DNA of 63,561 nt, the filler included. It is 6 parts of 6 records of this genome, joined end to end, with 100 filler letters (N's around TTAATTAATTAA, not from the genome) between each part and the next. Parts side by side here need not be neighbours in the genome. Positions count along the whole stretch, not along the records: positions 21,879 to 30,437 come from SRR20825019_1087; 5 more parts are not named here. One strand, given 5' to 3'. Position 1 is the first letter of the stretch, and each line of letters starts with the position of its first letter. The position numbers and the translations under genes are program-made. The notes below the pieces were generated by a model. That model did no database searches. It had not been told where the DNA came from and was given only the letters and a program-made list of their open reading frames with translations. This document shows, in pieces, positions 7,343 to 57,785 of this stretch.

Positions 7343-7409
7343 TCAGAGTGAATACTACAGATAGCAATTAATGCCGGGATCGACAGCGCGTCCGCGCGGC
7401 GGAGAGGCG

Positions 7410-8351
7410 ATGAGCAACGAAATAGATAGTCCGGAATTCTCGATCCTCGTGGTCGATGATGCTCCAGAGAACGTCATGCTGCTCAGCCTGATTTTGAAAG
7501 ATCTCGGCACCGTCTCCTCTGCCCTGAGCGGACGCGAGGCGATCGACAAGGCCCTCGAAAACCCTCCCGATCTGATTCTACTCGACATCCAGATGCCGGA
7601 ACTGGACGGCTATGATGTGATCGGGGTTCTGAAAGGAGACCCGAGGACAGAGAACGTGCCGGTGATTTTCGTCACCGGTCTCTCCGATGACGGTGACGAG
7701 GAGAAAGGCCTGAAGCTCGGGGCGATCGACTATATCACCAAGCCCTACAAGCCGGCGGTCGTCATCGCCCGGGTCCGCAATCATCTGCGGCTGCGTGAAT
7801 ATGTCATGCGCCTTGAGCAGTTGAATGAGGAGCTGGAGCGGCTTGCGACCACGGATGCGCTGACGTCGGCGTATAACAGGCGTTATTTCATGTCCAAACT
7901 GGAAGAGGAGGTGAAGCGGGTACGCCGGTACAAGCGCGCGTCATCTCTGATGATGATCGACGTGGACCATTTCAAGAAGATCAACGACACCTTCGGCCAC
8001 GATGTTGGCGATCATGTCCTGATCGCGCTCGTCAAACTTCTGGAAGAACAGGTCAGGCAACTCGATACGGTAGCCCGGATCGGCGGGGAGGAATTCGCTA
8101 TCCTGATGCCTGAAACCAGCGAGGAAGACGCGCTGATTTTGGTGAACAGACTACTCGATGCGGCCCGGACCGCTGCTATTACTGTTGCCGATAACACGGT
8201 CCGGTTTACCATCAGCATCGGCTGCACAGAATTCGACGCAGATACCGTGGACGGCGAAGGCATCCTGAAAATGGCGGATATGGCACTGTACGATGCGAAG
8301 AGAAGCGGACGTGACCAGGTCGTCTTCCGGTCATCCACGGTTACGGTTTGA
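7410..8351 (+). CDS. Response-regulator diguanylate cyclase (REC-GGDEF)
   Basis: ILVVDD...DLILLDIQMP...DYITKP receiver domain; DVDHFKKINDTFGHDVGD and RQLD...GGEEF (RxxD I-site and active site). Confidence 0.93.
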   Translation: MSNEIDSPEFSILVVDDAPENVMLLSLILKDLGTVSSALSGREAIDKALENPPDLILLDIQMPELDGYDVIGVLKGDPRTENVPVIFVTGLSDDGDEEKGLKLGAIDYITKPYKPAVVIARVRNHLRLREYVMRLEQLNEELERLATTDALTSAYNRRYFMSKLEEEVKRVRRYKRASSLMMIDVDHFKKINDTFGHDVGDHVLIALVKLLEEQVRQLDTVARIGGEEFAILMPETSEEDALILVNRLLDAARTAAITVADNTVRFTISIGCTEFDADTVDGEGILKMADMALYDAKRSGRDQVVFRSSTVTV

Positions 8352-21778: not shown

Positions 21779-21878
21779 NNNNNNNNNNNNNNNNNNNNNN
21801 NNNNNNNNNNNNNNNNNNNNNNTTAATTAATTAANNNNNNNNNNNNNNNNNNNNNNNNNNNNNNNNNNNNNNNNNNNN
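21779..21878. other. Artificial contig linker
   Basis: N44-TTAATTAATTAA-N44 (stops in all frames); identical at five places. Confidence 0.99.
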
Positions 21879-22147
21879 GTCTCGCTGCTCCTGTTCGGTT
21901 GACACCAGAGTCATATGTTTCGTTGTGTCTGCACAATCTCGTCTACTGAAGTATTCATTTTTATCGGCGCCGGCGGGCTCCGGCTCAGTGAGACGGAGAG
22001 TCCGGCTGCGTCCCGATGCTGAGGGCACTCGGGACCGGCTGGCCGCTCAAATCGGACCTACGTCACCCCATTGACAAATGTCCATTATCAGTATTAATAT
22101 TGGCGATCGATGGACATCTGTCCACAACGGCTTAGGGTCAAAACTGG

Positions 22148-22290
22148 CGCGGCCCCGGGCCGGCACCGCCGTTCCCATACCGAGCGACTATGCCCGGCCC
22201 GGCGCCGGTCCCGGGCCCGGCCCGCGCCGGGGCCGCCGCGGCGCGGCCGCGCTCAGGGACGCCGCCGGAGCCGGAGGCCCGAGCCTGGGC
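22148..22290. other. Extreme-GC non-coding island (eukaryotic contig)
   Basis: Runs such as CCCGGCCCGGCGCCGGTCCCGGGCCCGGCCCGCGCCGGGGCCGCCGCGGCGCGGCCGCG; no credible ORF; upstream of the gene at 22653. Confidence 0.7.
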
Positions 22291-22511
22291 TGATCCGAGG
22301 CTGCTGCCGTGCGCCCACTGACACCGTCGGCCCGAGGCCCGAACGGTGCCGGTCGTAGGAGTCAGTGGCGGCCCTTGCCAACAGTCTCTGTGTCAACATC
22401 TGCCGGGAGGGCCAATGGCCCCCGCGGGGGGTGCGTCGCGTGGTCTTCAGTCAAGAGACATGGGGCACGCCTGAACCCGGCCGTGGCCCACACAGAGGCA
22501 TCGAGAGACTT

Positions 22512-22518
22512 TATAAAA
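22512..22518 (+). promoter_or_regulatory. Possible TATA box
   Basis: TATAAAA about 135 nt upstream of ATG 22653. Confidence 0.35.
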
Positions 22519-22652
22519 GCCAGGGGCAGGAGGCGGAAGGGGTAGCCTCGTCCACTGCATATACCCTCTCCACGGTAGCCTTGTAGTCATCAGAGTCCTG
22601 TCGGCAGGACTGGAAAGAACTGGATCGCAGCCCACTGTGTCGGGTTAGAGGA

Positions 22653-23931
22653 ATGGTATCTGTTCAATACGCGCCGCGCCTTGTTGTGGTTTTATTCTTT
22701 CTCATGGGTTACACGGTCGCGTTTTCCGAGGCCGGAGTCGACACAATGCCGAACACAACCCCGGTCACGCCACCCCATAGTGCCCCCTACCGGATTCTGT
22801 ACGTCGCAACGACGCTTTCCGAAGGAGATTGGCCAGGATTTATAGAAGCCAAGGACACTATGCTGCAGGTCAGTGTGCTGTGTATATAGTATGGAGCGGT
22901 CTATAGTTGTATAGATTTGTCTGTAGTTGTATAGATTTGTCTATAGTTGTATTGGTTTGTTTGTGGTGTCTAGCTAGAATGGCTTGCAAACCTGACCCTC
23001 CGGTTTGCAGAGTGTGCCCGGCGCGGACGTGTGGACCCTAGGGTTTAGTATGCAGCCAGAAGCGGGCGTGGTGGGGGCATGGGAGACCCAGGCTGGGTCC
23101 GACCCGTCCGGCCGGCGTGAGCTCAAGAAAGTATCAAATGTTGGTGCATTTGACCCCGATTTACTCCGTGAGTTTCTGTGGCGTCGGTACCTGCCGGGAC
23201 GAACCCACCTTGTCATTGGGACACATGGCCTTGGAGGCTTCTTTGAGTTTGGCCGCGCGACGGAGTATCCCGGTCAGACCGATGTTCAGTACCCCATCGA
23301 ACGGTTCGTATCCCTTCTAACCGGCATGGAGTTTTTGTCTGTGGTGCTGGATGCCTGCCTTATGGCGGAGCTGACGACCGCCGTCGCGCTGTCAAAGGTT
23401 ACAAAGCATATGGTCGCGTGCGAGGGATGGATGTGGGAGGAGGATACCAGCCTAGAGACGAGCGTCGTGAACTCAGTATCCGCCAGGTTGCTAAGCTTCC
23501 AAGGCAACATTCCCTCCGCTCTGAGTAACGTCGCCGAGCATTTCAGTCAAGTGTCGCGCCGCGGCGATGCTTCCGTCATTAGCACCGACCACGCCTCGGC
23601 ATTGCTGGATTCGATTCTGTCGTCACCGCGGCACCGCGGCACCATTGCACAGTGCGAGTCCGGCCTGCCCGAACGTCTGTGCCCACTGAGCTTCTATGAC
23701 GGAGTTGATGTCGAGGATTCAATGCGGCTCCTCGATGTTCGCGCGATGTTGGAAGGTGATCCGGTCCGCAATAGTCTCATGCGGCGTGTTGTCAGTGACC
23801 ACTACGGGCCGTCGGCAGGCCGCGATCAAACATCGTACACACGTGATCTTGGAGGAATGTCTTTGAACTTTGTGAGTGCGCTCAACGGCACCTCGGCGTC
23901 CTCGCCCGATGGCGATACGACCATTGTGTAG
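22653..23931 (+). CDS. Secreted clostripain-like cysteine peptidase (clan CD, C11-like), 2 exons: 22653-22868, 23011-23931 (about 378 aa)
   Basis: Phase-0 intron GTCAGT...CCTGACC...TTGCAG joins the ORFs in frame; hydrophobic signal; HLVIGTHGLGG (His) and VVLDACLMA (Cys) match clostripain HGGG/FDACLM. Confidence 0.78.
22901..22960. repeat. Intronic minisatellite, 20-nt unit x3
   Basis: ctatagttgtatagatttgt / ctgtagttgtatagatttgt / ctatagttgtattggtttgt. Confidence 0.9.
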
Positions 23932-24108
23932 TGGTGTCCACCAGGCAACTGGTGTCTCAGAGAGCGCAGGCCAGGAGTGGAAATGATTGGCAAAGACCAG
24001 CTTACCCCATCCGGGTGCGGCACTCTCAGGTACGCATTCAATCTCTCCCCTTCTTGGGGAAATGAAATGTCGTATATCGTGAATCCCACAGGTTGTTTTA
24101 TATTCTTG

Positions 24109-27100
24109 TTACTTGTCTCCATCTTCGTCGACAGCAAAGCCAAACTCACGCAATATCTCCGTCGCGCGGTCATCGGATGTCCAGTATTCGACCCCTCTGC
24201 CATGGGAGTCCACGGCAGCCAGGTCCGCGCCGGCCTCCAGTAGGGCACGAATGGAGCCTAGTTCAGTGTTTCTGACCGACAGCAGCAGGGCGGTCCATCC
24301 ATCCTCGCTGGCAATATTGACATCGGCGCCAGCCGAGATCAGGGCCCGAACAGCGTCCGTGTGCTGCCAGCATCCCATTAGGGGGGTCCATCCGGAGTCT
24401 GTCCTAGCATTGATATCGGCGCCCCACTCGACTAACGTGTTCAGTACATCCAACCCGTCTTGGTCGCTGTGCGTGATTCCCATCAGGGCGTTGTGGCCAT
24501 CCGCTGTGGTGGCGTTCACATCTGATCCGGCTTCGACCAGCATTCTCACCACTGAGGGCGCGGGGACTTGAGACGCAAGCATCAACGCCGTTCTACCGCG
24601 GATGTCAGTCATATTGATGTCGGCGCCCTTAGCCAGCAGCACCCGACACACTTCACAGTGACCACCCCTAGCAGCCGCGAGGAGCGGGGTCTCCCCGTCA
24701 GTAGCCGGATGGTCGATTGCGTCCTTAGCATTGGTGTTACCCAGCAGCCATTCCACGATGGGTACATGGCCGTGCCGGGCGGCAATATGAAGCGCAGTCG
24801 CTCCGTCGCAGTCGGCCCTGGTGCCGTCGACTCCACCGCCTTTCATGCTGTCAGCAGGCCCGACTCCAGCATCTGAGTACCAGTGAAGGAGGGTCCGCCC
24901 GGAGCTGTCAACCGCCTCAGCGTCCGCCTTGGCCTCCAGCAGAGCATTGACAACGTCCCAGTGACCCCGGCGCGCGGCCATCGCCAAGGCGCAATTACCG
25001 TCCATGTCTACGGCATCAGCGTCGGCCCCCGCACTGAGCAGAGTTGTTACAGCTGTCAACAGTCCATTTCTTGCCGCCGCCATCAACGCCGTCGTCCCAT
25101 CCTCATCAAAAGCATTCACGTCGGCACCCGAGCCAAGCTCCACGGTCCCGCCCGCCGTGGCGTTAATAAGCCTTAAGGCAGCCGAACCCTCCGCCGCAGC
25201 CCCACGCCGATAGACAAACGTGACCCGGAACCACTCCGAGAATGATTCTAGCGTAACTGGGCTCGGGGCATCCGCAAGGGGCTTGGTTGTGGCGCGTGTG
25301 TGACCCTTTCCTAGCCGGTCCAGGACGAGCAACACACCGCCGAGCTCCAGTGTGCCGGCGGTGCCGCTGTGCTGTGCAAAGGCCCGGCGCATCACGAAAT
25401 CTTGCATCGCGGTCTGCACGCGGCCCGCCCGTTGATCAAACAAGCATTTTGTCATCTCACTCAGCGACACTGCGGCATCGTAGAGCATCCCCCGACAGAC
25501 AATAGGGCGCGGCTGGCCCGAATAGACACCTGCAATCACCGCACCGCTCTTGTCTAGGGAGGTCGCTATCACACATCCATCATCGCCACCCGTCATCACA
25601 ACAACACCTCCCCCTTCATCGTGGGCCAACGCCACACCCCGAACAGGCCCCGAGCGAGCGGTAAGTCTAGCCAGGACCTCCAGTGATGAGACTTGCAACA
25701 CAACCGCAGTCCCATCCTCAGACGATGTCGCCACAAGGTCCCGCGACACCGCGAGGGCAGTCACCGGTGCCATGTGAATTCCCAGCGTGTGAGAGGGCTC
25801 GGAGTTAGGCGCGGCCTGAGAGCGGAGGTCCCATGACTTGACCTTGCCATCACGGCCCCCTGTCAACACTTTTTCTCCGCAGGAAGAGAAGGACACCGCA
25901 TTCACGGCCTCATCGCCGTGTTTAACCGTCAATTTTGGAGTCAGACCCGATCCGTCACAACAGTCCCACATCCGCCCGGCACCATCCGAGCAGCCCGCGA
26001 CTAAGGACGTGCCGTCGAGGTTGAATCGAAGAGACAGCACGCGAATGCCGGGCTCATACTCCGGCGATGCAGGGTCCCCAGCGACGGGAGTTGTGGAGAG
26101 GACGGATCCGTCCTCCGTGCCGGACAGAGTAATATCGGCCCCGGTACCAGCAGTAGCGAGAATACTCCCGTGAATATCAGATGCATACACCCAGTCGAAG
26201 CCCCTCGTTGGGACTCGGCGAAGTGCGGCGCCGGCGGCCCCGTGCCATAACGACGCGAGCGATTCTCCCTTGGTGAATGCAGACGTGGCGATGACACCAG
26301 GAGCCACCCCGCCGGGTGGGGTCCGGGCAATCGCCGATACGTCCTGGTGATCTATGCGGCGGAGAGGTGTTCCGGCAGCCACGTTCCACAAGATCGCGGA
26401 TGAGTCCTTGCCGGAACAGGTGACGGCAGTGCGTTCACCCGTCCGCAGCAAAACGGCCGTCACGGCCTGGGAATGGCCGCGATAGAGGGATGCGGGAGGG
26501 GGTGGGCGCGCCATTATCGCTTCGCCCCAGACATGGATAGTTCCCGCTGAGGTCACCGTGGTCCACCTCCCGTCCTTTCCGGCGGCCGCCCCGACGACAG
26601 GGCCCCTGTGGCCTGCAATAGTCCGGACTTCATCGCCAGTCCGCGCATCGAATACTCGCGCCAGCCGGTCCTCGCCACACACTGATAGCCACTGGCCATC
26701 GGGGCTGTACGATACATGGAGGGGCGGCGAGGATACCGAAGACCGGACGGTGCTCAGGGCCGTCCCCGCGGCAACATCCCAAACAATCGCCAGACCATCG
26801 GACCCGCACGAGGCCAACCGCTCTGCACCGGACGAGAACGCCAGCGAGACGATCTTGCACACTTGGCGGCGCCCCATGTTCTTCCCGTGGGCGAATATGT
26901 CCTTCAGGACCTCCCCGGACTCCGCATCTATAATTCGCACCGACTTGGCCCAGTCGCCGGTCGCAACGAGGGCCCTCCCATCGGCCGTGGTGCCGTGCGC
27001 AACGCTCTGAATCACTCCACCGCATGAGGCGAACGTTCGGACGAGGGCGGGTGGCTCGGTGGTCCAGAGGCGAGCCTGGAGGTCACCTCCTCCGCCCGTC

Positions 27101-30100
27101 ACCAGGAAGGACCCGTCTTGGCTCAGTGCAACCGCCTCCACTCCAGAGGTGTGGCCCTGAAGCCTGGTGGGAGACTCCCAGTCATCATCAGAACCAGCGC
27201 GGCGCCAAAGGCTCACATCTCGTCCTCCGTCATGGGCCGCCGACAGAACACACCCGCACTCGCTGATCGACACACACACCACCCGCCGCCCTTCCTCATT
27301 TTCTTTCAACAAACCTTCTATCCGCCACCCGCTCCCCAGGACCACCACCTCCCCATCATCACTGCCAAGCGCCGCGGCATCTCCTCCACCGTAGGCAAAG
27401 CAAGCCACAGTTCGCGAAACGTCCTCGCTAGGTTGCTCTCCGGCCTCCACATCGGCCATGTCCGCGCCCGTCAGGTCCGCTCCCGCCAGGAACGCGCCTC
27501 GAATATCTGCCCCGCGCAGGCACGCCCCCCGGAGCGAAGTCCGGTGCATTACAGCACCCGCCAGCGTCGCCCCACTCAAGTCGACACCGCTTAGATCCAG
27601 TCCTGAGAAACAGACCCGCGCGCCGGTCAAAATGGTTGCGGCATGTGCAGACGCCACGGCGTTGGATCGGTCGTCTCTGGACAGAAGTATAGTGCCATAC
27701 AGTGTCCGCGGGAGGCCCGGAGCCGCGGTCCACCCGGCCACGGCAGGCGGTGGGTCCGAATCCAGCATGCTCTTCTCCACAGCACTGGCAGCATATCGCA
27801 TCACATCGCCAGAGGCTATATTCGGGTTGCTGAGAGCGGCCGGGGCGGCCTCAAGCGGATCCGGGGCCAGTCTCAGCTCGCTGATAACAAACACTGAGGC
27901 AAGGTACTCCTGCCACGACAAGTGGACGAACCGCACCGCATCCTGATTCGGGATGTCCTCGATTAGCGGGAGCTGACCCGCCGTGACCATCTTTTCCACC
28001 CAATCCAGCCTACCCCCGGCCAGGTTGGTGATCCCGCGCGCCTGCAGAGCCCGTTGGATTGTATCCAGGCCTGGGGTGGTGCTGAGGACACGATGGTGCT
28101 TCAGGGCACGACGAGGAATATCCCGCGTTCCCAACAGGACTTGTGCCTCGAATGCCACAATGGATAGGTACAATGTGATTTCTCGCGTTGCCAACTCATC
28201 GTCCTGCACTACATCGAAAGCTTCCTTCTGCATGACGCGGCCGAGACTCAGCCGGAGGCTAGTCGCGTACAGGCCAGCAAGCGTGCCCGCCAGGGTGCCG
28301 GCGTTGGACTGATACACATGAACCAGCAATGTTGCCAGAAGCTAAGCGCGTTAAGGGGGACGAGAGTCAACCAGGGGGCAAATAATTCCGGGGGATGGGT
28401 AACTTACCGGTGACTGAGCCATGACACTGGCCGCCGGATCCGACCGCACGGCCTCGAGGAACGCGTCCCCCGCCGTTTTGCCCCCGAGTCGGGCGGCCGC
28501 AAAGGTGCGAATGTCTCCATCCTGAAACGACTTTGGTTGATATTCGTCCAGTTTCTTCAGCTCCCTCGGGAGCGGACCCGCGTAGGGGCCGGTAGGCCGC
28601 GTTGTGATCATGCCACTGGCGCGACCAGCCACTGCAGTCAGCATGGCGGATATGAATGACACTACGCCCTCCTGATGACTCCCCGGGACCTCGTCCAGTC
28701 CATCAAATATTATCACGGTGCGTAACGGCACTGCCAACGGTTCATCATTGATCACCGCATGGAGCAAGCCGCGCGCATCGCCGGGCCATCCGTGCATGTC
28801 CGCGACACTGCTGCACACGCTGGGGAGATCCCAGCCCTGCGCCGGTCCTCGGGCGTGCGAAGTGACGAGAGCCGCGAGGGGAATATGAACAGGAAAGATC
28901 AGCGGACGATCGGGCCCTGGTCGCGCGGGGTTGTTCATTGCTGCGGCCAGCAGGACCTGCCTAGCAATCACGGTCTTACCGCTCGCAGCCCCGCCTACCA
29001 ACCAGAGGAACCGCGATGTTTCAGAAGATTTCCCTGTGACAAGGGCGTGTATAGTATCGATGGCCGCGGGGTTGGCGCGATGGGTGGCCGAGTCGGGCAC
29101 AGGAACCGCTCCCAGCACGACGCAGTCATGGAGAATACTCAGCTTATCGCCGCTCACAGCGTCTGCCACAAGCTCCGTGGTCCTCCGTATCTCACAGGCC
29201 AACCGCCGAATTCCGGCCGTAATATCCCTCTCGTCCAATTTCACCGATGCGCCGATATCATGGCGGTTGGGCGGTGCGGTATCGATCGATCCCTCTCCCG
29301 GGTTTAGGTCCTTAAGCAGCTCTCCGAGGCACGCGAGCACTGCCGCGCCGGCACAGGCAAGCTCATTTCCTTTTTCGCTGTAACGGAAGGTCTTAAACCC
29401 AAGCATCTTCAACAAGAATGGCATGATAACCAGCCGGAATTGACCGGTCGCACCAAGCCGGCCTGGCTTCAGAGCGCACGCCCCTAGGTACATAACCATC
29501 AGGCGGCGGAGCACCGCGACGAATCGCATAGCCACTACCGCGCGCCGACTGCCGGCCCATAAATCTCTGTGGGGAGAATCTTCAGGGGGCAAGAGAGTGC
29601 TAGGGTTCAGTGGCCCATACAGATCCTTTGCAAGGGCCACAAACGCCTCCCGGTCGTTATCCGAGCATCGGTCTTGGTCCCACGAGTACTCAAATACCAC
29701 GCACTGCTCCACCTTGACTAGGTCCGCCAGGATGTGGCCGCTCCCCGTGTGAGCAAAATCAATAACCCAAAACCGCCCGGCCGAATCCACCAGAACGTTC
29801 CTTCCGTTCAAATCACCATGCACAACACCTACTGGGCTGGGGCTCTGCGCAATATCATCAGGGACCGAGGATAGATGGGGGATGCACTCCCGAACGGCCG
29901 TCTCCAAGGACATGGACTCTTCCAGCATGGCAATTGCGGCACGCTTGCCCAGTACCGCATCAGCCCCATCCTTGGCGGATAGAATACGCTTCTCGATGGC
30001 TTTGATGACTGCCTGGACTAAGTCCCCCACCGTGGAGCCACCCCCCGTGCCAAGAGGGGCGGTGCCCACCGGCACCGTGACCGGAAGCATCACCACTTGA

Positions 30101-30282
30101 AACAGCCTTTGCACAGCAGCGACCCCCGTATATCCACTCACGGAGCCCTCACCTCCTTGGTCCCCGCCAAGGGCCGCCGCGACGTCATTCTTGATCAGAT
30201 CCCGCAAGGTTTCGATGTCATAGTTGCGGCTGAACTGCACCATGCGATTCGAGGCACCGCACAGCTCAATGCTCTGCGGCAT
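24109..30282 (-). CDS. NLR/STAND-like protein: APH/kinase-like + NACHT + pentapeptide repeats + WD40 + ankyrin; exons 30282-28408 and 28341-24109 (>=2035 aa, 5' end possibly missing)
   Basis: 66-nt intron GTAAGT...CTTAAC...TAG restores AQSP|LLATLL. HGDLNGRNVLV..WVIDFA kinase-like motifs; Walker A GGAASGKT; Walker B IIFDGLDEV; TTRP; FVHLSWQEYLAS; A(D/T)LxG pentapeptides; GH..WD-type repeats; G.T(P/A)L..AA ankyrin repeats. Confidence 0.88.
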
Positions 30283-30329
30283 TCACACGTCAGATCTCGC
30301 AACAACGGTACAACTCAGACGGGCCCGGA

Positions 30330-30385
30330 CTATAGTTAGGAACATAATTATAGGAGTGCTATGGTTAGGAACATAACTATAGGAG
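30330..30385. repeat. Tandem repeat, 29-nt period x2 (probably intronic)
   Basis: ctatagttaggaacataattataggag / ctatggttaggaacataactataggag. Confidence 0.85.
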
Positions 30386-30437
30386 ACAAAGGTGTGTGTT
30401 CCTTCAAGCATGAGCGCACAGAGAGGAGGGGGGGGGG

Positions 30438-30537
30438 NNNNNNNNNNNNNNNNNNNNNNNNNNNNNNNNNNNNNNNNNNNNTTAATTAATTAANNNNNNN
30501 NNNNNNNNNNNNNNNNNNNNNNNNNNNNNNNNNNNNN
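30438..30537. other. Artificial contig linker
   Basis: N44-TTAATTAATTAA-N44. Confidence 0.99.
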
Positions 30538-41855: not shown

Positions 41856-41955
41856 NNNNNNNNNNNNNNNNNNNNNNNNNNNNNNNNNNNNNNNNNNNNT
41901 TAATTAATTAANNNNNNNNNNNNNNNNNNNNNNNNNNNNNNNNNNNNNNNNNNNN
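41856..41955. other. Artificial contig linker
   Basis: N44-TTAATTAATTAA-N44. Confidence 0.99.
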
Positions 41956-44178: not shown

Positions 44179-45612
44179 ATGACACGCATTTTACGTGACA
44201 CGACATTCAGATCAGCAACTGCATCAACCAGCAGTGCGCGCGCAAAACTGCGCCGCTTCGTCAAGGACGATGACGGGTCGATGACGATCTTTGCCTGCTT
44301 CCTGATCATGATGATGTTGCTGGTGGGTGGTATCGGCGTTGACCTGATGCGCAGCGAGATGGAACGCACGCGGCTGCAAAACACAGTGGACCGCGCGGTT
44401 CTGGCCGCCGCAGATCTGGATCAGGAGATGGACCCTGAAGCGGTCGTGACCGACTATTTCGAAAAGTCCGGCCTAGGCAGCTACCTGCAAAGCGTCACCG
44501 TCGACGAAGGGTTGAACTTTCGCACGGTCACCGCCAAAGCCGCCACCAAATCCCCGACCCGCTTCATGAAGTTCATGGGCGTGCCTGAACTGAACGTACC
44601 CGCTGTGGGCACCGCAAGCGAACGCATAGCCAACGTGGAAATCTCGCTGGTTCTGGATATTTCCGGCTCGATGTCCTCCAACAGCAAGATCGAAAACCTG
44701 CGCAACGCGGCCAAAGTGTTTGTCGATACGGTGATCCGCCCCGAAACCGAAGATCTGGTCTCGCTCTCACTGGTGCCATATTCCGAGCATGTGAACGTGG
44801 GCAAACCCATCTTTGACGAGTTGAAAACCGTTCACCGTCACGAATTCTCCTATTGCCTCGAAATCCCGAACACGGAATTCAACAATGCCAAATTCGATCT
44901 GAGCAAACGCTACGACCAGATGCAGCACTTTCAGTGGAACTATGACGGGTACAACAACGACCGCTCCGACACTGTCTGCCCGCGGTATGACTATGAAACC
45001 ATCGCACCGCTCAGCCAGAATGCCACCGCGTTGAAATCCCAGATTGGCAAACTTCAGCCCCGCGCCGGGACCTCGATCTTTCTGGGGATGAAATGGGCCA
45101 CCGCTCTTTTGGACCCGTCCTTCCGTCCCGTGATCAACAACCTGATCAACACGAATGAAATCGACCAGGAGTTTCTGGGGCGCCCTGTGGCCTATGACGA
45201 CATCGAAACGTTGAAAACCATCATCCTGATGACCGACGGCAAGAACGACCGCTCGAACCGGATCGCGGACTGGGCCTACGATTCAGCCAGCGACTATGTT
45301 CACTGGAGCAACTACAACTTCAACTGGTATCTCAGCCGCTACGTCAACAGCCGTGACCGCAAATACTACTATGAAGCCGACTATTATACCGCCAGCACAG
45401 GCGACTATCTGCTGGGCAATATCTGCGATGCCGCCAAGGACAAAGGCATCGTGATCTGGGCCATCGGGTTCGAAGTTGACGACCACGGCGCCGACGAAAT
45501 GCGCAAGTGCGCCTCGACCCCCAGCCACTTCTTCCGCGTCGAAGGCGTCCAGATCACCGAGGCGTTCAAATCAATCGCACGCACGATCAACCAGTTGAGG
45601 CTGACACAATGA
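44179..45612 (+). CDS. TadG-like Flp pilus protein with vWA domain
   Basis: RRFVKDDDG|S prepilin-like site and TM; LVLDISGSM MIDAS; LMTDG; AIGF. Confidence 0.88.
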   Translation: MTRILRDTTFRSATASTSSARAKLRRFVKDDDGSMTIFACFLIMMMLLVGGIGVDLMRSEMERTRLQNTVDRAVLAAADLDQEMDPEAVVTDYFEKSGLGSYLQSVTVDEGLNFRTVTAKAATKSPTRFMKFMGVPELNVPAVGTASERIANVEISLVLDISGSMSSNSKIENLRNAAKVFVDTVIRPETEDLVSLSLVPYSEHVNVGKPIFDELKTVHRHEFSYCLEIPNTEFNNAKFDLSKRYDQMQHFQWNYDGYNNDRSDTVCPRYDYETIAPLSQNATALKSQIGKLQPRAGTSIFLGMKWATALLDPSFRPVINNLINTNEIDQEFLGRPVAYDDIETLKTIILMTDGKNDRSNRIADWAYDSASDYVHWSNYNFNWYLSRYVNSRDRKYYYEADYYTASTGDYLLGNICDAAKDKGIVIWAIGFEVDDHGADEMRKCASTPSHFFRVEGVQITEAFKSIARTINQLRLTQ

Positions 45613-48153: not shown

Positions 48154-48253
48154 NNNNNNNNNNNNNNNNNNNNNNNNNNNNNNNNNNNNNNNNNNNNTTA
48201 ATTAATTAANNNNNNNNNNNNNNNNNNNNNNNNNNNNNNNNNNNNNNNNNNNN
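48154..48253. other. Artificial contig linker
   Basis: N44-TTAATTAATTAA-N44. Confidence 0.99.
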
Positions 48254-48367
48254 GGGGGGGGGGGGGGGGGGGGGGGGGCTTCCTTCCATAGGCCAAGGGC
48301 GCGGTGCGGTGTCCGGTGTCGATGGATGACGATGTAATGATGGCAGTTGTGCTAATTCTTGTGACAG

Positions 48368-48505
48368 GATGAGAAGGAGGAGAATGACGCCGAAGATGAT
48401 GAAAATAATGAAGGTGAAGAACCCCCAGAGGAACCGGAGGAAGAGCCCATGCCGGAGCCCGTGTGGACACCGGCTCCATCCAAACGCAATCGACGCCGCC
48501 GTTGA
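48368..48505 (+). CDS. Probable terminal exon of a eukaryotic gene (acidic tract, basic C-terminus)
   Basis: Branch CTAAT plus acceptor GACAG, then DEKEENDAEDDENNEGEEPPEEPEEEPMPEPVWTPAPSKRNRRRR*. Confidence 0.55.
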   Translation, partial: DEKEENDAEDDENNEGEEPPEEPEEEPMPEPVWTPAPSKRNRRRR

Positions 48506-48772
48506 CCCCGCTCCTGATCTTCACAGGCTGATGGGGTGGGACGGGAAAGGTATGAAAATTCAAGGGGAGAACCGCGAGGGAAGGGGAGAAATCCGATGCG
48601 TAAACGTACCGGAATATCAAAATCCAAAAAAATAATTACAGGGTAGGGCAAGTCGCAGGAAAGGCGGCCCAACATGGCGTGCACTGAAGTAATATCCAAG
48701 TGCATGCACTATCAACGCCACTAGCAGTATTAGGCTGTGGGTTTAGTATCTATAGGAATCAGTAAACGCGAA

Positions 48773-51700
48773 TCAAACGCATTTTTCACGGTGGGCTCTC
48801 TTCAGCGGGGTGCGACGAGTTGCGAGCGAGTCTCTCCAACGCCGGGGTGTAAATACTGGGAGGGGGGAGGGGGGTGGGGCCTCCCTCTCGCGTGGCTGGG
48901 GGCCCTCCGCAACCACCAGGGGTGCCGCCCCTCCCCCAATGGCAGCAAGGCTCTCTGTGCTGCTCATCCACATCTCAGAAGGAGCAGCGTTGCGCGGAGA
49001 CGGCCCCGGGCTCAACACGTGCTTCGTGGACGTCATCGGAGCTACAATTGGAGGAGGAATGCTCATTACGACACCGGTGCCCGTCCCATTTCCGGCGTGA
49101 ATGCCCATGGCCATATGCTGGGACAGCCACTCAAAGTATTCATCAGGATCCACACCCATCTCCTGCAGATACGGGCATCAGCAGGAGCACGCGACCGTTC
49201 ACCATGGTACGCTCACCTTGGCCTTGCTGAATAGCTCTGCAGCACTGAGGTTGCAAATGGAGTCAGGGTTTGCCGTCATTAGAGACTGCTTGACCGCCAG
49301 CGCCGCCGCAAAGAAGTATCGTTCCTCCAGGGTCGCAACGATCTTGGTACGGCGCTCCTCGCGGGATCGTGCGGACTATTGCGAAATATCAGTACGCAAC
49401 CCTTGCCGTCACTGTGGAACTCACATGAACAATCGTTTGCAGGCGCGTCACCACCTGAGAGAGCAGGGAAGTGTCGCGTTGGTTTTTGACATTGTCACAA
49501 ACTGCATTTGCAGACTCGTTAGCAGCGCCTGGGACTGCGGTCTCGAGCTCGGAACAAAGGTGGAGGAGGGAATGAACCCGCTCAACCTCCATGCCAAGTG
49601 CGGGTGACACGGAGCGACGCATTGTTCTGGTGTCAACATTTGGAGTCACGGGTGACTTTGGAGTGGGAGAAACCGCTGTATCTGAGATGGGGGAGAGAAA
49701 AGGCCCGCCCTCCGCAGACTGAGGGGGCACGTGGGCTTCGACTCCACTGCCGCCATCCATCATTTTGGAGTCAACCTCTGGCTCCCGGGTTTGCTGTGTC
49801 AGCCCAACATAAGTTCATCGAACGTAACCACCAGGATGCACCGTGACTGACCTCGCACAGTTGGCCAAGCGCCGCGGTGAGACTGTCGTGGGTTGTCTTC
49901 AGCTCGCAGCGCAGAGCTTTCTCGGTCTTCTCAAGGCCAGCAATACGCTGCATTGCGTCCTTCCCCTCCCGCCTTAGGCCTTCACATTCTTTGGAAAGCC
50001 GCGCTCCTCGCTCTTCAGACTGCTTCAATTCTCCGTGTAGCATGGAGACCTTGGTCCACACAAACACAAAGTTACGGTTGACCTGACGCAAGGCGTAATC
50101 TGCCTACCTCTGCCAGTGTCTTGTTGAGCGATGCTGTCACATCCTCCAATCGCCGGGACAACGCGGCCCGTTCCAGCATAAACGCGCTTCGCTCATCCTT
50201 GAGCTTCCTGTCGCACTCCGCGTGAAGATTTGACTCATCTTCATCCATTGTCGTCCCCACAGTGATCACATCAACCTGATCAGACTCGATGATGGAATGG
50301 AGATGATCAACCTCAGCCTGCAACGCTGCATTTGCCTCTACAAGTGCAGCATTCTCCTCGGCAACCTCGCGGTGTGCCCTGTTCCATTTCGTGATCACCT
50401 GTGAGAAACAAACCTCAGCTCCTGTAGTCAGGACACCATTAATGAATATACCTTAGGGGTGATAGCAGATATTCCAGAACCATATGTGGTGGATCGCATG
50501 GACCTTGTGTGCGTGCGGACCTGGTGGGTGTCAATATCCGCCGGAAAACTGACTCCAAAAACACTCACCCGCACTGGAGTCCTCCCCCGCCTGCTCTTCT
50601 TCGCGGGCGTTTGTACAAAGACCTCTTCCCCGTCAGCATCAAGCTTGCCGGTGGGACTGACATGATGACCGACAATCATCAATCCACCATTGTGGAAGCC
50701 CCTGACCATGCCGTTTCGGCACACCTCAACTGGGGCCACCTCATCATCACTTATGTCCTCAGTGAGTGCGGAGGCGATTGACGCGGGGGTCGACACCGGT
50801 GCGACTAGTTGACCATCCTCCTTTGTCGCGGACTCCGAGGCTGAGTCTTCAGCGGGGAGCTCAAACTTCACAATAGCTTCGCGGAGTGACTCCATATCAC
50901 AATCAGGAGAGAGGTTCTGCTCTGGTTGAGGTGAGTGCACGGGGCTGCTCTCGGCACCGATATTCGAGTCATCGGGGAAGAAACCATCTCCGGCAAGGAG
51001 GGGCTGCGGCCTCGCCTGAATGTTGCTGAACATTGGCGGAGGAGGCGAAGGAAGAGGGCCCATCTGGTCAGGATTAATCAGTTGGCCCCATTTTCTCTCC
51101 TGTCGTCCCGACTTACCTTCTTCTTGGAGAGAAGGACGGCGGATGGCGCGGCGAGCCGTGGTGTTCGGTGGGTCTTGGTTGTCTTTGTTGCGGATATCTC
51201 GTGGAGCTCCTGTTCCATGGCCTAAAGTAACGAATCAGAACTAACACGCAAAGAATCCTTTGGAGCACGCTCAAAATACCTTGACCTTCTCGGCCGGCCA
51301 GCCCCTGTTGCCCGCGGCGTCGTTCCCCGGGGCGGCGAGGGCATTGGTGATGTTAGGATTCTCAGAGAGAATTCGAAGCATGCTGGACTGTTGTGACTGC
51401 AAAGCGCTTCGGCCCGAGTGCAGAATGTTGGTGGCAAGCACGGCCTGGTGGCAAGATCAGTGATGAGCCCCAACTACAGCCGCCCTGTTGCGGGATGGGC
51501 AGCCGGAGCCTGCATACCGCCTTCATAGCACCCTCCTCCATCTTGTTCGAGATGTTCATGGCACTGGTTTTCACACGCTGCGGGAAGTTTTCGTCGATCT
51601 CACATTCGACCCGCGCTAATTCGCCTAGGCGGCTTTCAGTGTGGACTGGGAGTGACACTCCGTGCTGTGCGGATGGCTTCGAGTCAGAACCATCACCATA

Positions 51701-52135
51701 AGCGACAATGGAAAGAAATCACAGAACGGCGGTTGGAGGTGAAGTGACACTTGGCATGTTACAAGGAATTAACGTACCGGCCCAGCCATTACGACAGGTC
51801 CAACGCCGAGCGGGGCACAGGCAGCCTCTCGTTCAGAACTAGAGGTGGGGCAGTCATTGTCCTGCAAATACCCTTGTCAACGCCGGCACAAACGTGGTTC
51901 GACATCCATGTCCACCTACTTCAGTATAGGAAGGGTTGCCCTTACGACTTGGAGAGACCGCGGAGGCATCAGTTTTCAGGAGGCGCGTGCCGATCTTCTC
52001 CCTCTGCTCCAGTCGCTTCAGCACTCGATTATGGTGGGTCAGCATGCCTCCTTTCTGTTTGATTTCCCAAGTGTCAGTGGGGTAAATACACATATTGCTA
52101 CCGTCGAATGCAGCGTCACCGGGCTGCCACGCCAT
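48773..52135 (-). CDS. Multi-exon eukaryotic coiled-coil protein (about 11 introns; 5' end uncertain)
   Basis: Phase-0 GT-AG introns that keep frame: 49163-49216, 49376-49424, 49794-49851, 50050-50107, 50399-50451, 50521-50568, 51064-51116, 51222-51279, 51445-51517, 51665-51777, 51862-51919. Heptad-rich middle; compact C-terminal domain LEERYFFAAALAVK...EYFEWL. Confidence 0.7.
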
Positions 52136-52249
52136 CGCCTTCTGTAGGCTGGGCTGGTGCTAAAGACGGGCCATCTGCTGCACTCTATTGAATCAGTCAC
52201 GGGCCGGTCGCACAGAGTGAGGTCACGGGTGGGTGCGGAGACTGAAGAG

Positions 52250-52375
52250 GCGGCCGCGGCCTGGCCGCGGGCCCCGGGAACGCCACGCCCGGCGTGGCAC
52301 GCAGCCGGCGCCCGCCGGCCCCGCCGGTCAGTGACCGGCCGCCGGACCCCCGGCGCGCCGGGCCGGAGCCGCAAC
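52250..52375. other. Extreme-GC non-coding island between divergent eukaryotic genes
   Basis: GCGGCCGCGGCCTGGCCGCGGGCCCCGGG...CCCCCGGCGCGCCGGGCCGG; same character as 22148-22290. Confidence 0.7.
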
Positions 52376-52869
52376 GGTCACATGAGGAGTACGCAATTAG
52401 GGCTCAAAAGTTTCGATGCGGATTTTCCTAACACTCTATGTAACGATTTAATCTATATATAACGATGGGTTCTTCGTCTCCGCCTACGCACCATCACGCC
52501 GTCATTGCAACACTGATGAGGACTGCCATGAGGATGGCGGGCCCGGGTTTCGCCTTGAATGATCCTCCTGAGCCAGTTTTCAGATTGAGCGGAGTGCGCT
52601 ACTCGTGCCGTGCCTGTCAGCTCTCTAGGCCGGTGACGTTTCATTCCTCTTCAAGTGGGCTTCCATAACCATCTACCCCCATAGCTGCACTAAGGATGCC
52701 GGTCCGACGCCCGAGCCAAGCTCCCGCTCAACGCCACCACGCACCACCACACACCAGCACCTCAAGTGGGTGAGAGGAAGCGGTGGGCTTTTGAGTGCCG
52801 TTGGAGGCAGTGACGCAGTGCTTCAGCAGCACGCGTTGCCGCAACGAGCACAACACGGTTTTGACACGC

Positions 52870-52944
52870 CGCGTTTCTTCTCTCACCCAACCCCGTGCTT
52901 CTTCTCTCACTCGGCCCCGCGTTTCTTCTCTCACTCGGCCCCGC
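52870..52944. repeat. Tandem repeat, 24-nt unit x3, in the upstream region of the gene at 53084
   Basis: cgcgtttcttctctcacccaaccc / cgtgcttcttctctcactcggccc / cgcgtttcttctctcactcggccc. Confidence 0.9.
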
Positions 52945-53083
52945 ATACCCAAGAGAGCCCGCGAAGGCAAACGAAACACCCACCGGTGCACGGCACCTGG
53001 CCTCGGTTAAGCTTATATAGAGAGAGCGTCTGTCTCTTGGGTTAGATGGCTACCAACTCCAGCCCGTTAGAGGCAGAGGCAGC

Positions 53084-56000
53084 ATGGGACACTTGCGCAC
53101 ATGCTGTGCTGTGGCGATAGTGCTCATGTTGAGCATGACGACATCGCAGATTGCGGGGGGTGTGGATGCGGTGAAGCTCCCGCCGGTTGACCCGGCCTCC
53201 ATGGACGTAGACGCCATCCAGGACACCCTCCAGACACTTTTTGGCGGCCTACTCGGGGGTAGCGTGAGCGTCAATGGTAACACCATCAACCTCCGCGGCA
53301 AAGGCGACGAGCCGGCCCCGCCACCAGTTCCAACGAACACCACTGCGAGCCCGACGTATAAGTACGGACGGGTGAACTCAACACTCAGCCCTGCAGCACT
53401 AAACGCTACACTTTTTGATTTGGCGCGGAAGGGTGGTCGCGTCGCAAAGAAGCTGGGTTATCCGTTCATGCCGGACATCAAGTTCAAGCACACCGTGGCT
53501 CCGATGGGCACCGTGAGCCCCGGCCCTGGCCAGCTACCACCCGCCGTGTTGGCGTTGCTGCAGGAAGCGTACGCGGGCTTTGAGGAGTCTGAGGACGGGG
53601 GAGGAGGCGACGATAATCCTCTCGAGTTCTTGATGAAGATCTTTGACGTGCTACAGGTACTGTGAACTTCGCGCGGTTAGTCCGTAAAAATAACGTTCTG
53701 TCCAGATGATTATGCCGACCAAGGACACGATTCATGGGCTCCTGGACTTGCCGACATGTCTTATAGAGCTTATTGTGGACGCGGTGAGGGAGCTGGGTTC
53801 CGGCGGCGTGTGCAAGATAGGTAGGTGTTTTGTAGCTGCTGTTCGCTTGGTGGGGCCCGACCCCGCCTGGCCACAATCAAAGGAGTGCACTCACAAACTT
53901 GCATGACAGGCCCCTTAGAAGTTTCAGATGAGACTCTCGATATGATTCAGCTCGACCTCAACATTGAATTCCTCTCTTCTCTCGGCATCCCCTTCATGTC
54001 TCTCCGCGAGATGTGTGATAAGCTCATGGTGCTCCGCGCGGCTATTGATGGTCTGACTGATATTGCCGTTGGCAAGCGATGCCATCTTTCACCAGTGAGC
54101 GGTCTTATACAGAATGACCAGACACTCTCCGCCGCGGCCGACGGGCTTTCGTCGGTCACGAAGACGAAGGAGCAGCGCGAAGGGATCGCACTCTTGCAGG
54201 AGGAGGAAAGATTCTTTGACGGGATGGGCGGGATGGGAGGATCCGGGGAGTACGACGCTGCACCGGCCGAGTCGCAGCCGGAACCTGCAGGGGCGAGTGT
54301 GGGCTCTGGGGCCGAGTCGCCAAACGCCAGTGCCGCGCCCAAGCAGGGTTCAAGGGGGGCGGGTGCCGGAGGGGCTATGCCTGATGATATGGGAGCGAAC
54401 ATGCAGGACGCGGGAGAGATGATCCAGCAGGGCATCGCCATGCTGAAGGAGGTCATGGGCCTCGCAGAGCTATTCTTCGGAACTATAGTTGAGAATGTGG
54501 ACACCTGCGCAGAGACGCCGCGGGCGGAGTTCTCGTTCAGGGTAGACATTGAACAAATCGGCCATGTGGAGGTCATCGGCTCGCAGTCGCTGTGCTGTGT
54601 GCTGAAGGCATTGACCGCCATCATCCCAGCGGCAATTGATCTAATCATCAACAGCCCTATCTTTCAGATATTCGGCATGCTGAAAGACCTTATCAAGGTG
54701 CTGGTGGACACGATCATCAAGCCTATTCTGTCAATCCCTGACCTCCTGATGGGCCTGCTGCCCCAGACACCCACATGTGTACTCCAGGGAGTGCCTCTGG
54801 ACGAAGAGGCGATGAGAGCCATCTCCCTTCGCTTCGACATTGGTCTCGACCTCAAGATTGCGTCCATCCAGGTTCCCAAGCTGTACTTCAAGACACAGAC
54901 AGGGAACGATCTGTGCTTCATCGTGCAAGTGCTTGATGGGCTGGTGGACAAACTGGAGGGCCTGGTGCAGAACGTGGTGGGCCAGGTCGTTGAGGTGGAC
55001 GGCCTCTCACTGGAAGGGTTGGGCCTCGGCATGGTTAAGGACATCATCAACATCCCCATCAAGTTCATCGTTGATGTAGTTCGTTCATTTGAGAAGGGAA
55101 GCCACGAGTGCGCTGCGCTCTTCTCCGGCTCGTCCAATCCCGATATCAACCTATTGATCGACCTGCCTCCATTCATTTACATCCCAAGTGGGATATATGT
55201 TGCGGACAACCCGTCGCTGAGACTTGGGCCGATCGTACGCATCTGGCTCGATGATGCGCGCGGAGCGTGCAGCCTGGTACTGGGGCTCAAGAATGCTATT
55301 GAAATTCTTCTCCGGGAGGGTATAACAATCGGTTCGGCTACCCTCAAGGGAGGAATGGAGGCGGGTGTAGACGCTGCCAAGGGCAAAGGTGACGGCACGC
55401 CGGTGGCTGTTGAAGATGACGCGGAGACATCCTCGGAGAGCGCGGGTGACAGCGAGAATCAGGCGCTTGTAGAGGCAACCACTCCATATGACAAGCACAA
55501 GATAACAACGCCGCAACTGCTGGCCAGGGCCCGCAAGACGGCTAAACTTTTGCAGTCACGACTTGCCCTCATCGAGGTTTCCGAGACTCAGGGTGACGAT
55601 ACTGCCGAGGACCAAGGGGCTGATGGTGGCGCCACGGGTGAAAAGAAGTCCGGTGGAGCCCTGGGGGGGACTGTAGATGGGGTTGCGAATCAGGCTGTAG
55701 GGATGGTTAGCAAGATCGTAAAGATGATCACAGACATGATCGATGAGGTGCTTAAGATGCTGGTTAAGATCCTTCCGGACCTCGACACCTTCAAAAGCAT
55801 CCTCCAACTCCCCATATGCCTTCTCACCAAGGTCATAGAGACGGCAAAGTCGGTCATTTCCGATGGGTGAGTCTCCGCAATGATAGGTTGTTGTAGTTGG
55901 ATGGGACTGATCATATGTGTGCAGGCCGTGCAAGCCCGCGATGGGCGAGGACGCGGAGGAGATCCCGAACGAGACGCTGGACAAGGTGAAGCTCACCGGC

Positions 56001-57685: not shown

Positions 57686-57785
57686 NNNNNNNNNNNNNNN
57701 NNNNNNNNNNNNNNNNNNNNNNNNNNNNNTTAATTAATTAANNNNNNNNNNNNNNNNNNNNNNNNNNNNNNNNNNNNNNNNNNNN
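57686..57785. other. Artificial contig linker
   Basis: N44-TTAATTAATTAA-N44. Confidence 0.99.

Follow-up and report, generated by a model that had tools for sequence, protein, structure and literature searches.

A putative NLR-like protein of a protist TCAD9-NACHT family with pentapeptide and WD40 repeats between its NACHT module and ankyrin repeats

We analyzed a 63.6-kb stretch of DNA, hereafter the window, in which one contig (positions 21879-30437) carries on its minus strand a gene for a large protein with a kinase-like region, a NACHT module, pentapeptide repeats, a WD40 array, and ankyrin repeats. Its sequence clearly places the protein in a protist family that joins a TCAD9-like kinase region to NACHT. 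We lean toward regarding it as an NLR-like STAND nucleoside triphosphatase of this family, in which pentapeptide repeats and a 14-blade WD40 array have been placed between NACHT and the ankyrin repeats. In the simplest reading, a TCAD9-NACHT-ankyrin gene would have gained a pentapeptide-WD40 sensor cassette.

Gene structure and domain order

Two open reading frames (ORFs) are present on the minus strand, at 28351..30282 and 24109..28329. The initial annotation had proposed that removal of a 66-nt intron fuses them into one protein of at least 2035 amino acids (aa), and this was confirmed: the flanks joined by coordinates (30282..28408 and 28341..24109) give 6108 nt, corresponding to 2035 aa and a stop codon. 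The peptide at the spliced junction (...AQSP/LLATLLVHVY..., where the slash marks the exon boundary) aligns without gaps to NPLMLSLL of P0218, NPLMLSML of P0122, and VPLLATML of P0163, three relatives described below, and these matches fall inside otherwise continuous NACHT alignments. The comparative evidence for the intron appears good.

The features of the gene are listed in Table 1. The order kinase-like, NACHT, pentapeptide, WD40, and ankyrin, which had been read from the sequence at the outset, is borne out by Pfam matches above the cut-offs and by AlphaFold 2 (AF2) models. A NACHT with intact Walker A and B motifs, an APH-like region, and two repeat arrays likewise support the initial assignment to eukaryotic STAND/NLR-type proteins, and all of the motifs quoted for it were found in their expected places.

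Table 1. Features of the gene, its contig, and the window
Feature	Position	Strand	Basis or remark
Exon 1 as visible, 625 codons; kinase-like C-lobe and NACHT nucleotide-binding domain	28408..30282	-	ATG at 30282
Phase-0 intron, 66 nt, GTAAGT...TTAG, two in-frame stops	28342..28407	-	
Exon 2, 1410 codons and stop; remaining NACHT module, pentapeptide, WD40, linker, ankyrin	24109..28341	-	
TCAD9/APH-like kinase C-lobe, aa 135-261	29500..29880	-	Pfam, own HMM, alignment, fold matches
Catalytic loop HGDLNGRN (H155-G-D157-LNGR-N162)	29797-29820	-	
Mg-binding VIDFA (I174-D175-F; DFG equivalent)	29752-29766	-	
NACHT module, aa 425 to ~790, intron-interrupted	27847..29010	-	
Walker A GGAASGKT, aa 430-437	28972-28995	-	
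Walker B IIFDGLDE, aa 524-531	28690-28713	-	
ITTRP (sensor-1-like), aa 559-563	28594-28608	-	
Winged-helix motif FVHLSWQEYLAS, aa 763-774	27895-27930	-	
Pentapeptide-repeat beta-helix, aa 868-927, ~12 rungs	27436..27615	-	Pfam PF00805, 42.7 bits; AF2 model
WD40 array, aa 937-1562, 55 modeled strands, ~14 blades	25531..27408	-	Pfam WD40, 118 bits; AF2 model
Linker, aa 1563-1690 (128 aa), no family, unstructured	25147..25530	-	pLDDT 20-30
Motif LSEMTKCLFDQRAG, aa 1585-1598, within the low-confidence linker	25423-25464	-	
Ankyrin array, aa 1699-2024, ~9 helix pairs	24145..25122	-	Pfam Ank, 148 bits; AF2 model
155 nt upstream of the ATG, non-coding in appearance, with a 29-nt direct repeat (1.9 copies) at 30330-30385	30283..30437	-	
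Neighboring gene, 378 aa, convergent with the gene above	exons 22653-22868, 23011-23931	+	142-nt GT..AG intron 22869-23010
Artificial linkers	21779-21878, 30438-30537, 41856-41955, 48154-48253, 57686-57785		

The protist TCAD9-NACHT family

With exon 1 as the query, 1.84 billion representatives were searched exhaustively with HMMER, which returned 349 matches at E<=0.001; the best E-value was 8.9e-17, and none was below 1e-30. Most of them share only a catalytic region of ~55 aa. The counts of relatives given here rest on the 150 representative matches listed by this search. With a local NACHT hidden Markov model (HMM), a kinase-like region followed by NACHT was found in 19 of the 150, although the initial annotation had not recognized the architecture as described. 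Named members come from Hondaea fermentalgiana (GBG29183.1, GBG27114.1, and GBG31137.1), Durusdinium trenchii (CAK9092772.1), and Cymbomonas tetramitiformis (KAK3249355.1), and further members are MMETSP and EukProt entries. The named species are, in this order, a labyrinthulomycete (Labyrinthulomycetes), a dinoflagellate (Symbiodiniaceae), and a green alga (Pyramimonadales), so that the family spans three or more eukaryotic lineages, and Hondaea alone has three diverged members.

These proteins share the HGDLNGxN and WxIDF region with ours, followed by the Walker A motif of the same NACHT clade. The distance from HGD to Walker A is 277 aa in our protein vs 236-462 aa in 17 of the 19 relatives. 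The identity to the relatives is ~25% over NACHT and reaches 42-56% only across ~50-95 aa around the catalytic loop. Pfam scans of 17 relatives gave TCAD9 in 16 and NACHT in 14. Their C-termini carry ankyrin repeats in eight cases, RCC1 in two, HEAT in two, LRR in one, and WWE in one, with nothing listed for the remaining three, and Pfam found pentapeptide or WD40 repeats in none of the 17. The ankyrin array had been taken as an appended second sensor. Because ankyrin is the usual C-terminus and the pentapeptide and WD40 repeats are absent from the scanned relatives, the roles are reversed: the unusual, inserted part would be the pentapeptide-WD40 block, which is otherwise seen in bacterial NACHT proteins.

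Two further searches added no relatives. A search with exon 1 for longer homologous proteins scored none of 7999 candidates, but it was a weak one, as the exhaustive search did find long relatives; in the ESM Atlas, the best score was 0.76, which is below the lead level. Full-text searches of the literature found no description of a TCAD9- or APH-NACHT family in protists, although eukaryotic members of this NACHT clade may be listed in the supplementary tables that accompany Kibby et al. The titles and abstracts on proteins combining NACHT, pentapeptide, and WD40 repeats describe no eukaryotic protein of this kind.

NACHT module and comparison with bacterial proteins

Pfam NACHT (PF05729) matches aa 425-595 with 30.3 bits (cut-off 26.7), and the NACHT motifs align with the same motifs in the relatives. 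The best Foldseek match of this module is NLRP3 (E 3.9e-4), and NLRC4 and NOD2 are also listed, at identities of 9-19%; the E-values are marginal because the query contained two domains.

The module matches an HMM of 14 protist family members, from which our protein had been left out, with 109.4 bits (E 1.1e-35). An HMM of 22 bacterial-type NACHT-pentapeptide-WD40 proteins gives 17.4 bits. In a quick maximum-likelihood tree, our NACHT and the 14 protist members lie on one side of a branch with a Shimodaira-Hasegawa-like approximate likelihood ratio (SH-aLRT) support of 100. By both comparisons, its clade is that of the protist TCAD9-NACHT type and not that of the bacterial NACHT-pentapeptide-WD40 type. 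Its placement within the protist side, beside P0133 and P0163, is unreliable.

The exon 2 search returned mainly bacterial matches. Those bearing NACHT have an identity of 24-31% and come from Streptomyces and Kitasatospora (in both often with TIR) and from Sorangium and Micromonospora. The bacterial NACHT-pentapeptide-WD40 proteins have the same domain order as ours and align with it at 24-30% identity from aa 760 or 870 to ~1550. However, besides the different NACHT clade (the 17.4 vs 109.4 bits and the fully supported branch above), they begin with TIR and other domains in place of a TCAD9-like region, they stop after WD40 without ankyrin repeats, and they are prokaryotic and intron-less.

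We compared the C-termini of 24 NACHT-pentapeptide-WD40 homologues. Sixteen end in a FWH..G.CRF.PGELD-type tail, five, from Sorangium, in another shared tail, and three in a Pro/Lys-rich stretch; BLAST did not find the FWH..G.CRF.PGELD-type tail in our protein. The 'LS....LL.QRGA'-like tail that the initial annotation gave for such proteins is absent from all 24 C-termini. Their stated occurrence in Mortierella, Mycoavidus, and ciliates also found no support, as none of these is among the named matches of the 120 listed in the exon 2 search.

Kinase-like domain

Pfam TCAD9 (PF19974) matches aa 150-260 with 55.2 bits (cut-off 40), covering only positions 296-398 of the 429 in the profile, and Pfam APH (PF01636) scores 34.2 bits (cut-off 23.2). 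The residues H155, N162, D175, and D187 are invariant in a 26-sequence alignment (A1). Of the 19 relatives, 17 keep the catalytic HxDxxxxN, and all 19 keep the Mg-binding Asp. The two relatives that lack the catalytic Asp or Asn, P0215 (HGRLNGSN) and P0254 (HGGLDGSS), both end in RCC1.

We also built an HMM from 44 stand-alone TCAD9-like matches of 500-660 aa from the exon 1 search. In its consensus, the N-terminus is receiver-like, the N-lobe at ~160-295 bears VVK and E motifs, and the C-lobe runs from ~350. Within the first 420 residues of our protein, it matches only aa 135-261, with 96 bits over HMM positions 361-472. Among the relatives, the N-lobe match is continuous with the C-lobe in P0254 and weak in P0163. 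Nothing credible came from Pfam searches that admitted E-values up to 1 and covered aa 1-150, 260-420, and 640-870 and the linker.

The AF2 model of aa 1-625, made with the 26-sequence alignment, has a mean predicted local distance difference test (pLDDT) score of 76.6 and a predicted TM-score of 0.67. Foldseek with this model matched both a kinase and a NACHT fold (E ~4e-4 to 1e-2 over both); on the kinase side, glucosamine kinase, maltokinase, and choline kinase were found. A profile of the alignment searched against the PDB matched RIO2 kinase, the RNase L pseudokinase, and aminoglycoside phosphotransferase. The proposed APH/choline-kinase-like domain is thus upheld for the catalytic C-lobe, its motifs, and its fold matches, but the ATP-binding N-lobe is not in the contig. 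The proposed phosphotransferase output is in the same position: the catalytic motifs are intact, and the visible part that carries them is the C-lobe.

We consider it improbable that this region is a catalytically dead C-lobe remnant or pseudokinase, which would serve as a docking or oligomerization surface while the output comes through partners recruited by the ankyrin repeats. Such a role would fit the lack of an N-lobe in the ORF and elsewhere in the window, the loss of the catalytic Asp in P0215 and P0254, and the disrupted catalytic residues of most protein-kinase domains in bacterial ternary systems, as reported by Kaur et al. (PMC7159879). However, H155, D157, N162, and D175 are kept here and in 17 of the 19 relatives, which argues for selection on catalysis, and the end of the contig explains the missing N-lobe more simply.

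Pentapeptide, WD40, and ankyrin repeats

The AF2 model of aa 860-2035 has a pLDDT of 76.2. A period-15 DNA repeat (27455-27498) lies within the pentapeptide block. The ~14 modeled WD40 blades would fit two seven-bladed propellers; a repeat HMM finds only 10 of the blades because they have diverged. The ankyrin array contains a low-confidence insert at aa 1767-1796. No DNA-level tandem repeats were found in the WD40 or ankyrin regions, and both sets of repeats are therefore taken to be old and diverged. The ankyrin array was dropped as evidence of kinship, since unrelated ankyrin proteins match it at least as well as members of the family.

The WD40 array had been described as closing with LSEMTKCLFDQRAG. 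This does not hold in the model, where the motif lies 23 aa beyond the last confident WD40 strand, in the linker. In one BLAST alignment against a small local database (E 0.002), the motif is instead paired with an 'LWD' strand, one of the internal WD40 strands of P0121.

Fungal HET-E/NWD-type NACHT-WD40 incompatibility proteins have near-identical, recently homogenized WD40 repeats. An assignment to this type was rejected because the WD40 repeats of our protein are diverged and its DNA contains no tandem repeat of WD40 period.

Eukaryotic origin, transcription, and integrity of the gene

The contig of 8559 nt (guanine-cytosine (GC) content 0.607) contains only the gene described here and one unrelated spliced gene. 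The 142-nt GT..AG intron of this neighbor is skipped, at identity >=99%, in a depth-48 contig of run X1, the sole public run with the contig; the contig is therefore eukaryotic. Run X1 was available as contigs only and covers 13 of 30 bins. Six short colinear X1 contigs (depth ~3, identity >=99%) lie over 24345-25842, that is, the last WD40 blades, most of the linker, and the ankyrin repeats. One of them spans the WD40 end into the linker, and the linker is colinear over 25207-25489. A gap at 25061-25206 contains the boundary from linker to ankyrin (~25122). Run X1 behaves like a transcriptome, and the gene is apparently transcribed over its 3' third or more.

It is very unlikely that the gene is a pseudogene or a chimera of the assembly, with ankyrin repeats from another gene or a 66-nt segment that is not an intron. 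In favor of such an artifact, the contig is short, its assembly is fragmented and mixed, no fold is seen in the linker, and the linker-to-ankyrin boundary falls into the X1 gap. However, a single uninterrupted frame of 1410 codons runs through WD40, linker, and ankyrin, the GC content is even along the gene, and the independent X1 contigs agree with the sequence across the end of the WD40 array. In addition, ankyrin is the expected C-terminus of the family, the ends of the intron are canonical, and its removal restores the alignment. We conclude that this is a genuine intron-containing gene of a high-GC microbial eukaryote.

Several points weigh against the reading of the protein as a family member with an inserted pentapeptide-WD40 block. 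The similarity of the WD40 and ankyrin arrays is generic for such repeats, and the origin of the block cannot be named. The best identity among NACHT- or WD40-bearing exon 2 matches is <=31%. On the evidence of sequence identity, which is low in two large libraries, no close homologue is known and orthology is not established. The branch of our NACHT in the tree is very long (2.38), its nearest neighbors are also long, and the tree came from a quick search and not a careful one. In the kinase-like region, HMM positions 160-295 of the N-lobe, matched by 13 of the 19 relatives, have no match in our protein. The AF2 model has no beta-sheet before residue 151, and residues 11-145 form six helices. 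Because neither the model nor the HMM match contains an N-lobe, ATP binding by the visible part is not assured. Finally, run X1 has no coverage of 25883-30437 and thus includes neither the splice junction at 28342-28407 nor the 5' end.

The 5' end of the gene

The missing N-lobe bears on where the gene begins. Somewhat more probably than not, one or more true 5' exons, encoding the N-lobe and perhaps more, are absent from the visible ORF; alternatively, this is a form of the protein without an N-lobe. The 155 nt upstream of the ATG are either a 5' untranslated region or promoter, or the 3' part of an intron that ends at an acceptor-like site at codon 3 (CCGCAG/AG, 30274). We slightly favor a gene model truncated at its 5' end, in which the ATG at 30282 still belongs to the last part of an intron, the actual exon follows 30274, and the exons for the N-lobe, and possibly for a long N-terminal region like that of relatives, lie beyond the end of the contig. 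The kinase-like domain would then be an internal, constant partner of NACHT and not a terminal effector. Such a truncation competes with the reading of a complete 2035-aa protein, not with the NLR-like reading.

Besides the acceptor-like site, several findings favor the truncation. The contig stops 155 nt upstream of the ATG in a poly-G run (plus strand, at 30437), and CTATAGTT-type repeats occur in these 155 nt, as in the proven intron of the neighboring gene. The model of our protein has no beta-sheet N-lobe, and the N-lobe match present in 13 of the 19 relatives ends, in 11 of them, 137-293 aa before HGD vs the 154 aa that precede HGD here. Up to ~1000 aa precede the kinase-like domain in relatives, for example a thioredoxin domain in P0122. 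Most family members have a detectable N-lobe and long N-terminal extensions, both of which our protein lacks.

However, an in-frame TGA directly precedes the ATG, as for a true start, and the 155 nt contain no donor-like site. Short N-termini with no match to the N-lobe also occur in P0196, P0215, and P0218, and the form without an N-lobe may be real, although these three may be truncated models themselves. In addition, a match seen by eye between residues 4-21 and the hinge of bacterial TCAD9 proteins has no statistical support. A six-frame search of the window for the N-lobe matched only a bacterial receiver domain at 7365-8348. A search for the locus with exon 1 gave 63 pattern matches in metagenome contigs and 42 in genome contigs; none was confirmed, and no contig extended the 5' end.

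Possible mechanism and function

The kinase-like domain lies at a near-constant distance from NACHT in the family, and both protein ends are variable. Therefore, it may be a fixed signaling or regulatory partner and not a freely swapped effector. By analogy with solved NLRs and bacterial NACHT defense proteins, the repeat arrays would keep NACHT closed in the ADP-bound state until a ligand binds WD40, ankyrin, or both. Binding would permit nucleotide exchange and oligomerization, and the oligomer would cluster the N-terminal kinase-like domains, which could then phosphorylate a small molecule or a protein as output. Solved NLR structures share this division into sensor, switch, and output. In bacterial NACHT defense proteins, C-terminal repeats act as sensor and autoinhibitor, NACHT as a switch that oligomerizes depending on nucleoside triphosphates, and the N-terminus as output; NACHT proteins are also reported to protect bacteria from phage (10.1101/2022.07.19.500537).

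An immune, allorecognition, or conflict role may be expected from the analogy within the family. A non-immune STAND scaffold in cell-cycle, ciliary, or stress signaling, similar to some animal NACHT-WD40 or NACHT-TPR proteins, is unlikely. It would agree with old, diverged WD40 and ankyrin repeats, unlike those of the fungal incompatibility proteins, with the lack of a paralogue of the gene in the window, and with its low depth in run X1 (~3 vs 48 for the neighbor). However, C-terminal repeats (ankyrin, LRR, RCC1, HEAT, and WD40) are swapped freely around the constant core, and Hondaea has three diverged members; swapping of this kind is described for conflict-type NACHT proteins (10.1101/2022.07.19.500537).

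Comparison with other known systems

Bacterial TCAD9 proteins (PF19974; PMC7159879) have the APH-like catalytic core in common with our protein. They are ~530 aa long with a receiver-like N-terminus and a full N-lobe, whereas ours is eukaryotic, fused to NACHT, and without a visible N-lobe. According to PMC7159879, TCAD9 is encoded beside MoxR and vWA genes, and TCAD9 of these MoxR-vWA (VMAP) ternary systems is predicted to phosphorylate low-molecular-weight substrates as an effector. APH-like small-molecule kinases are likewise described there, and in PMC8195603, as effectors of bacterial ternary conflict systems. Membership in a VMAP/MoxR-vWA ternary system was rejected: the 8.6-kb contig contains no MoxR or vWA gene, and the host is eukaryotic. 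A Tad/vWA ORF at 44179-45612 of the window belongs to a separate, bacterial contig.

Animal NLRs such as NLRP3, NLRC4, and NOD2 have the NACHT fold and the logic of repeat sensor, NACHT switch, and N-terminal output in common with our protein. A functional parallel is offered by NOD1/2, which signal through the kinase RIPK2. These kinase partners are of the RIPK protein-kinase type, whereas the kinase-like domain here lies in cis and is of the APH/choline-kinase type. An animal NACHT-LRR type was rejected because no LRR, CARD, PYD, or BIR occurs in the Pfam matches considered (all 5 of exon 1 and the best 25 of 40 of exon 2).

Much is known about NLR-type receptors of animals, plants, fungi, and, since recently, bacteria, but far less about those of free-living protists. 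A tentative and broader possibility is that protists share an undescribed NLR family with an APH-like small-molecule kinase from bacterial conflict systems as its constant signaling partner, and that the protein studied here captured a bacterial-type sensor cassette. Besides the organism of this contig, such a family would include stramenopiles, dinoflagellates, and green algae. Its activation would make or destroy a phosphorylated metabolite or nucleotide signal and would not recruit death-fold adaptors. Our protein would be the receiver of a complete pentapeptide and 14-blade WD40 cassette in front of its native ankyrin repeats and would thereby have two sensors in series. Should the kinase-like domain be the output, it would represent a kind of effector that is not known for eukaryotic NLRs, and it would tie them directly to the bacterial conflict systems that served to define TCAD9. 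A NACHT of the protist clade combined with a bacterial-style pentapeptide-WD40 sensor would be a concrete example of the shuffling of sensor cassettes. The TCAD9-NACHT family deserves a description, for which the value of this copy is limited by its fragmentary contig and probably missing 5' end.

Contig context and minor observations

The window consists of six unrelated contigs joined by five identical artificial linkers (44 N, TTAATTAATTAA, 44 N). The true context of the gene is therefore 21879-30437 only, and the gene neighborhood across the linkers is meaningless. Four of the contigs are bacterial in appearance, with genes for an aromatic amino-acid lyase, an MFS transporter, an ABC ATPase, an ATP-dependent DNA ligase, Tad/vWA, and a GntR-FCD regulator; the other two are eukaryotic in appearance. 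An Rfam scan of the window gave no matches.

The protein of the neighboring gene has a signal-peptide-like start and no Pfam family, with a faint Peptidase_C11 match (E 0.25) around an LDACLMAE motif. Its intron contains direct repeats at 22899-22960 (period 20, 3.1 copies) that have CTATAGTT in common with those at 30330-30385. In the ORF-poor left part of this contig, a GC-rich simple repeat (GCCCG-type, periods 5-26) lies at 22192-22273. A contig of run X1 departs from the window sequence at 21987 with a 255-nt loose end, which suggests that the left end of the contig is arranged differently or contains a splice.

The second eukaryote-looking contig, 48254-57685, has a GC content of 0.566 and begins with 25 G. 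It carries long ORFs of 681 aa (53825-55870), without a Pfam family, and 376 aa (56130-57260). Both are acidic and of low complexity, and the two may be relatives.

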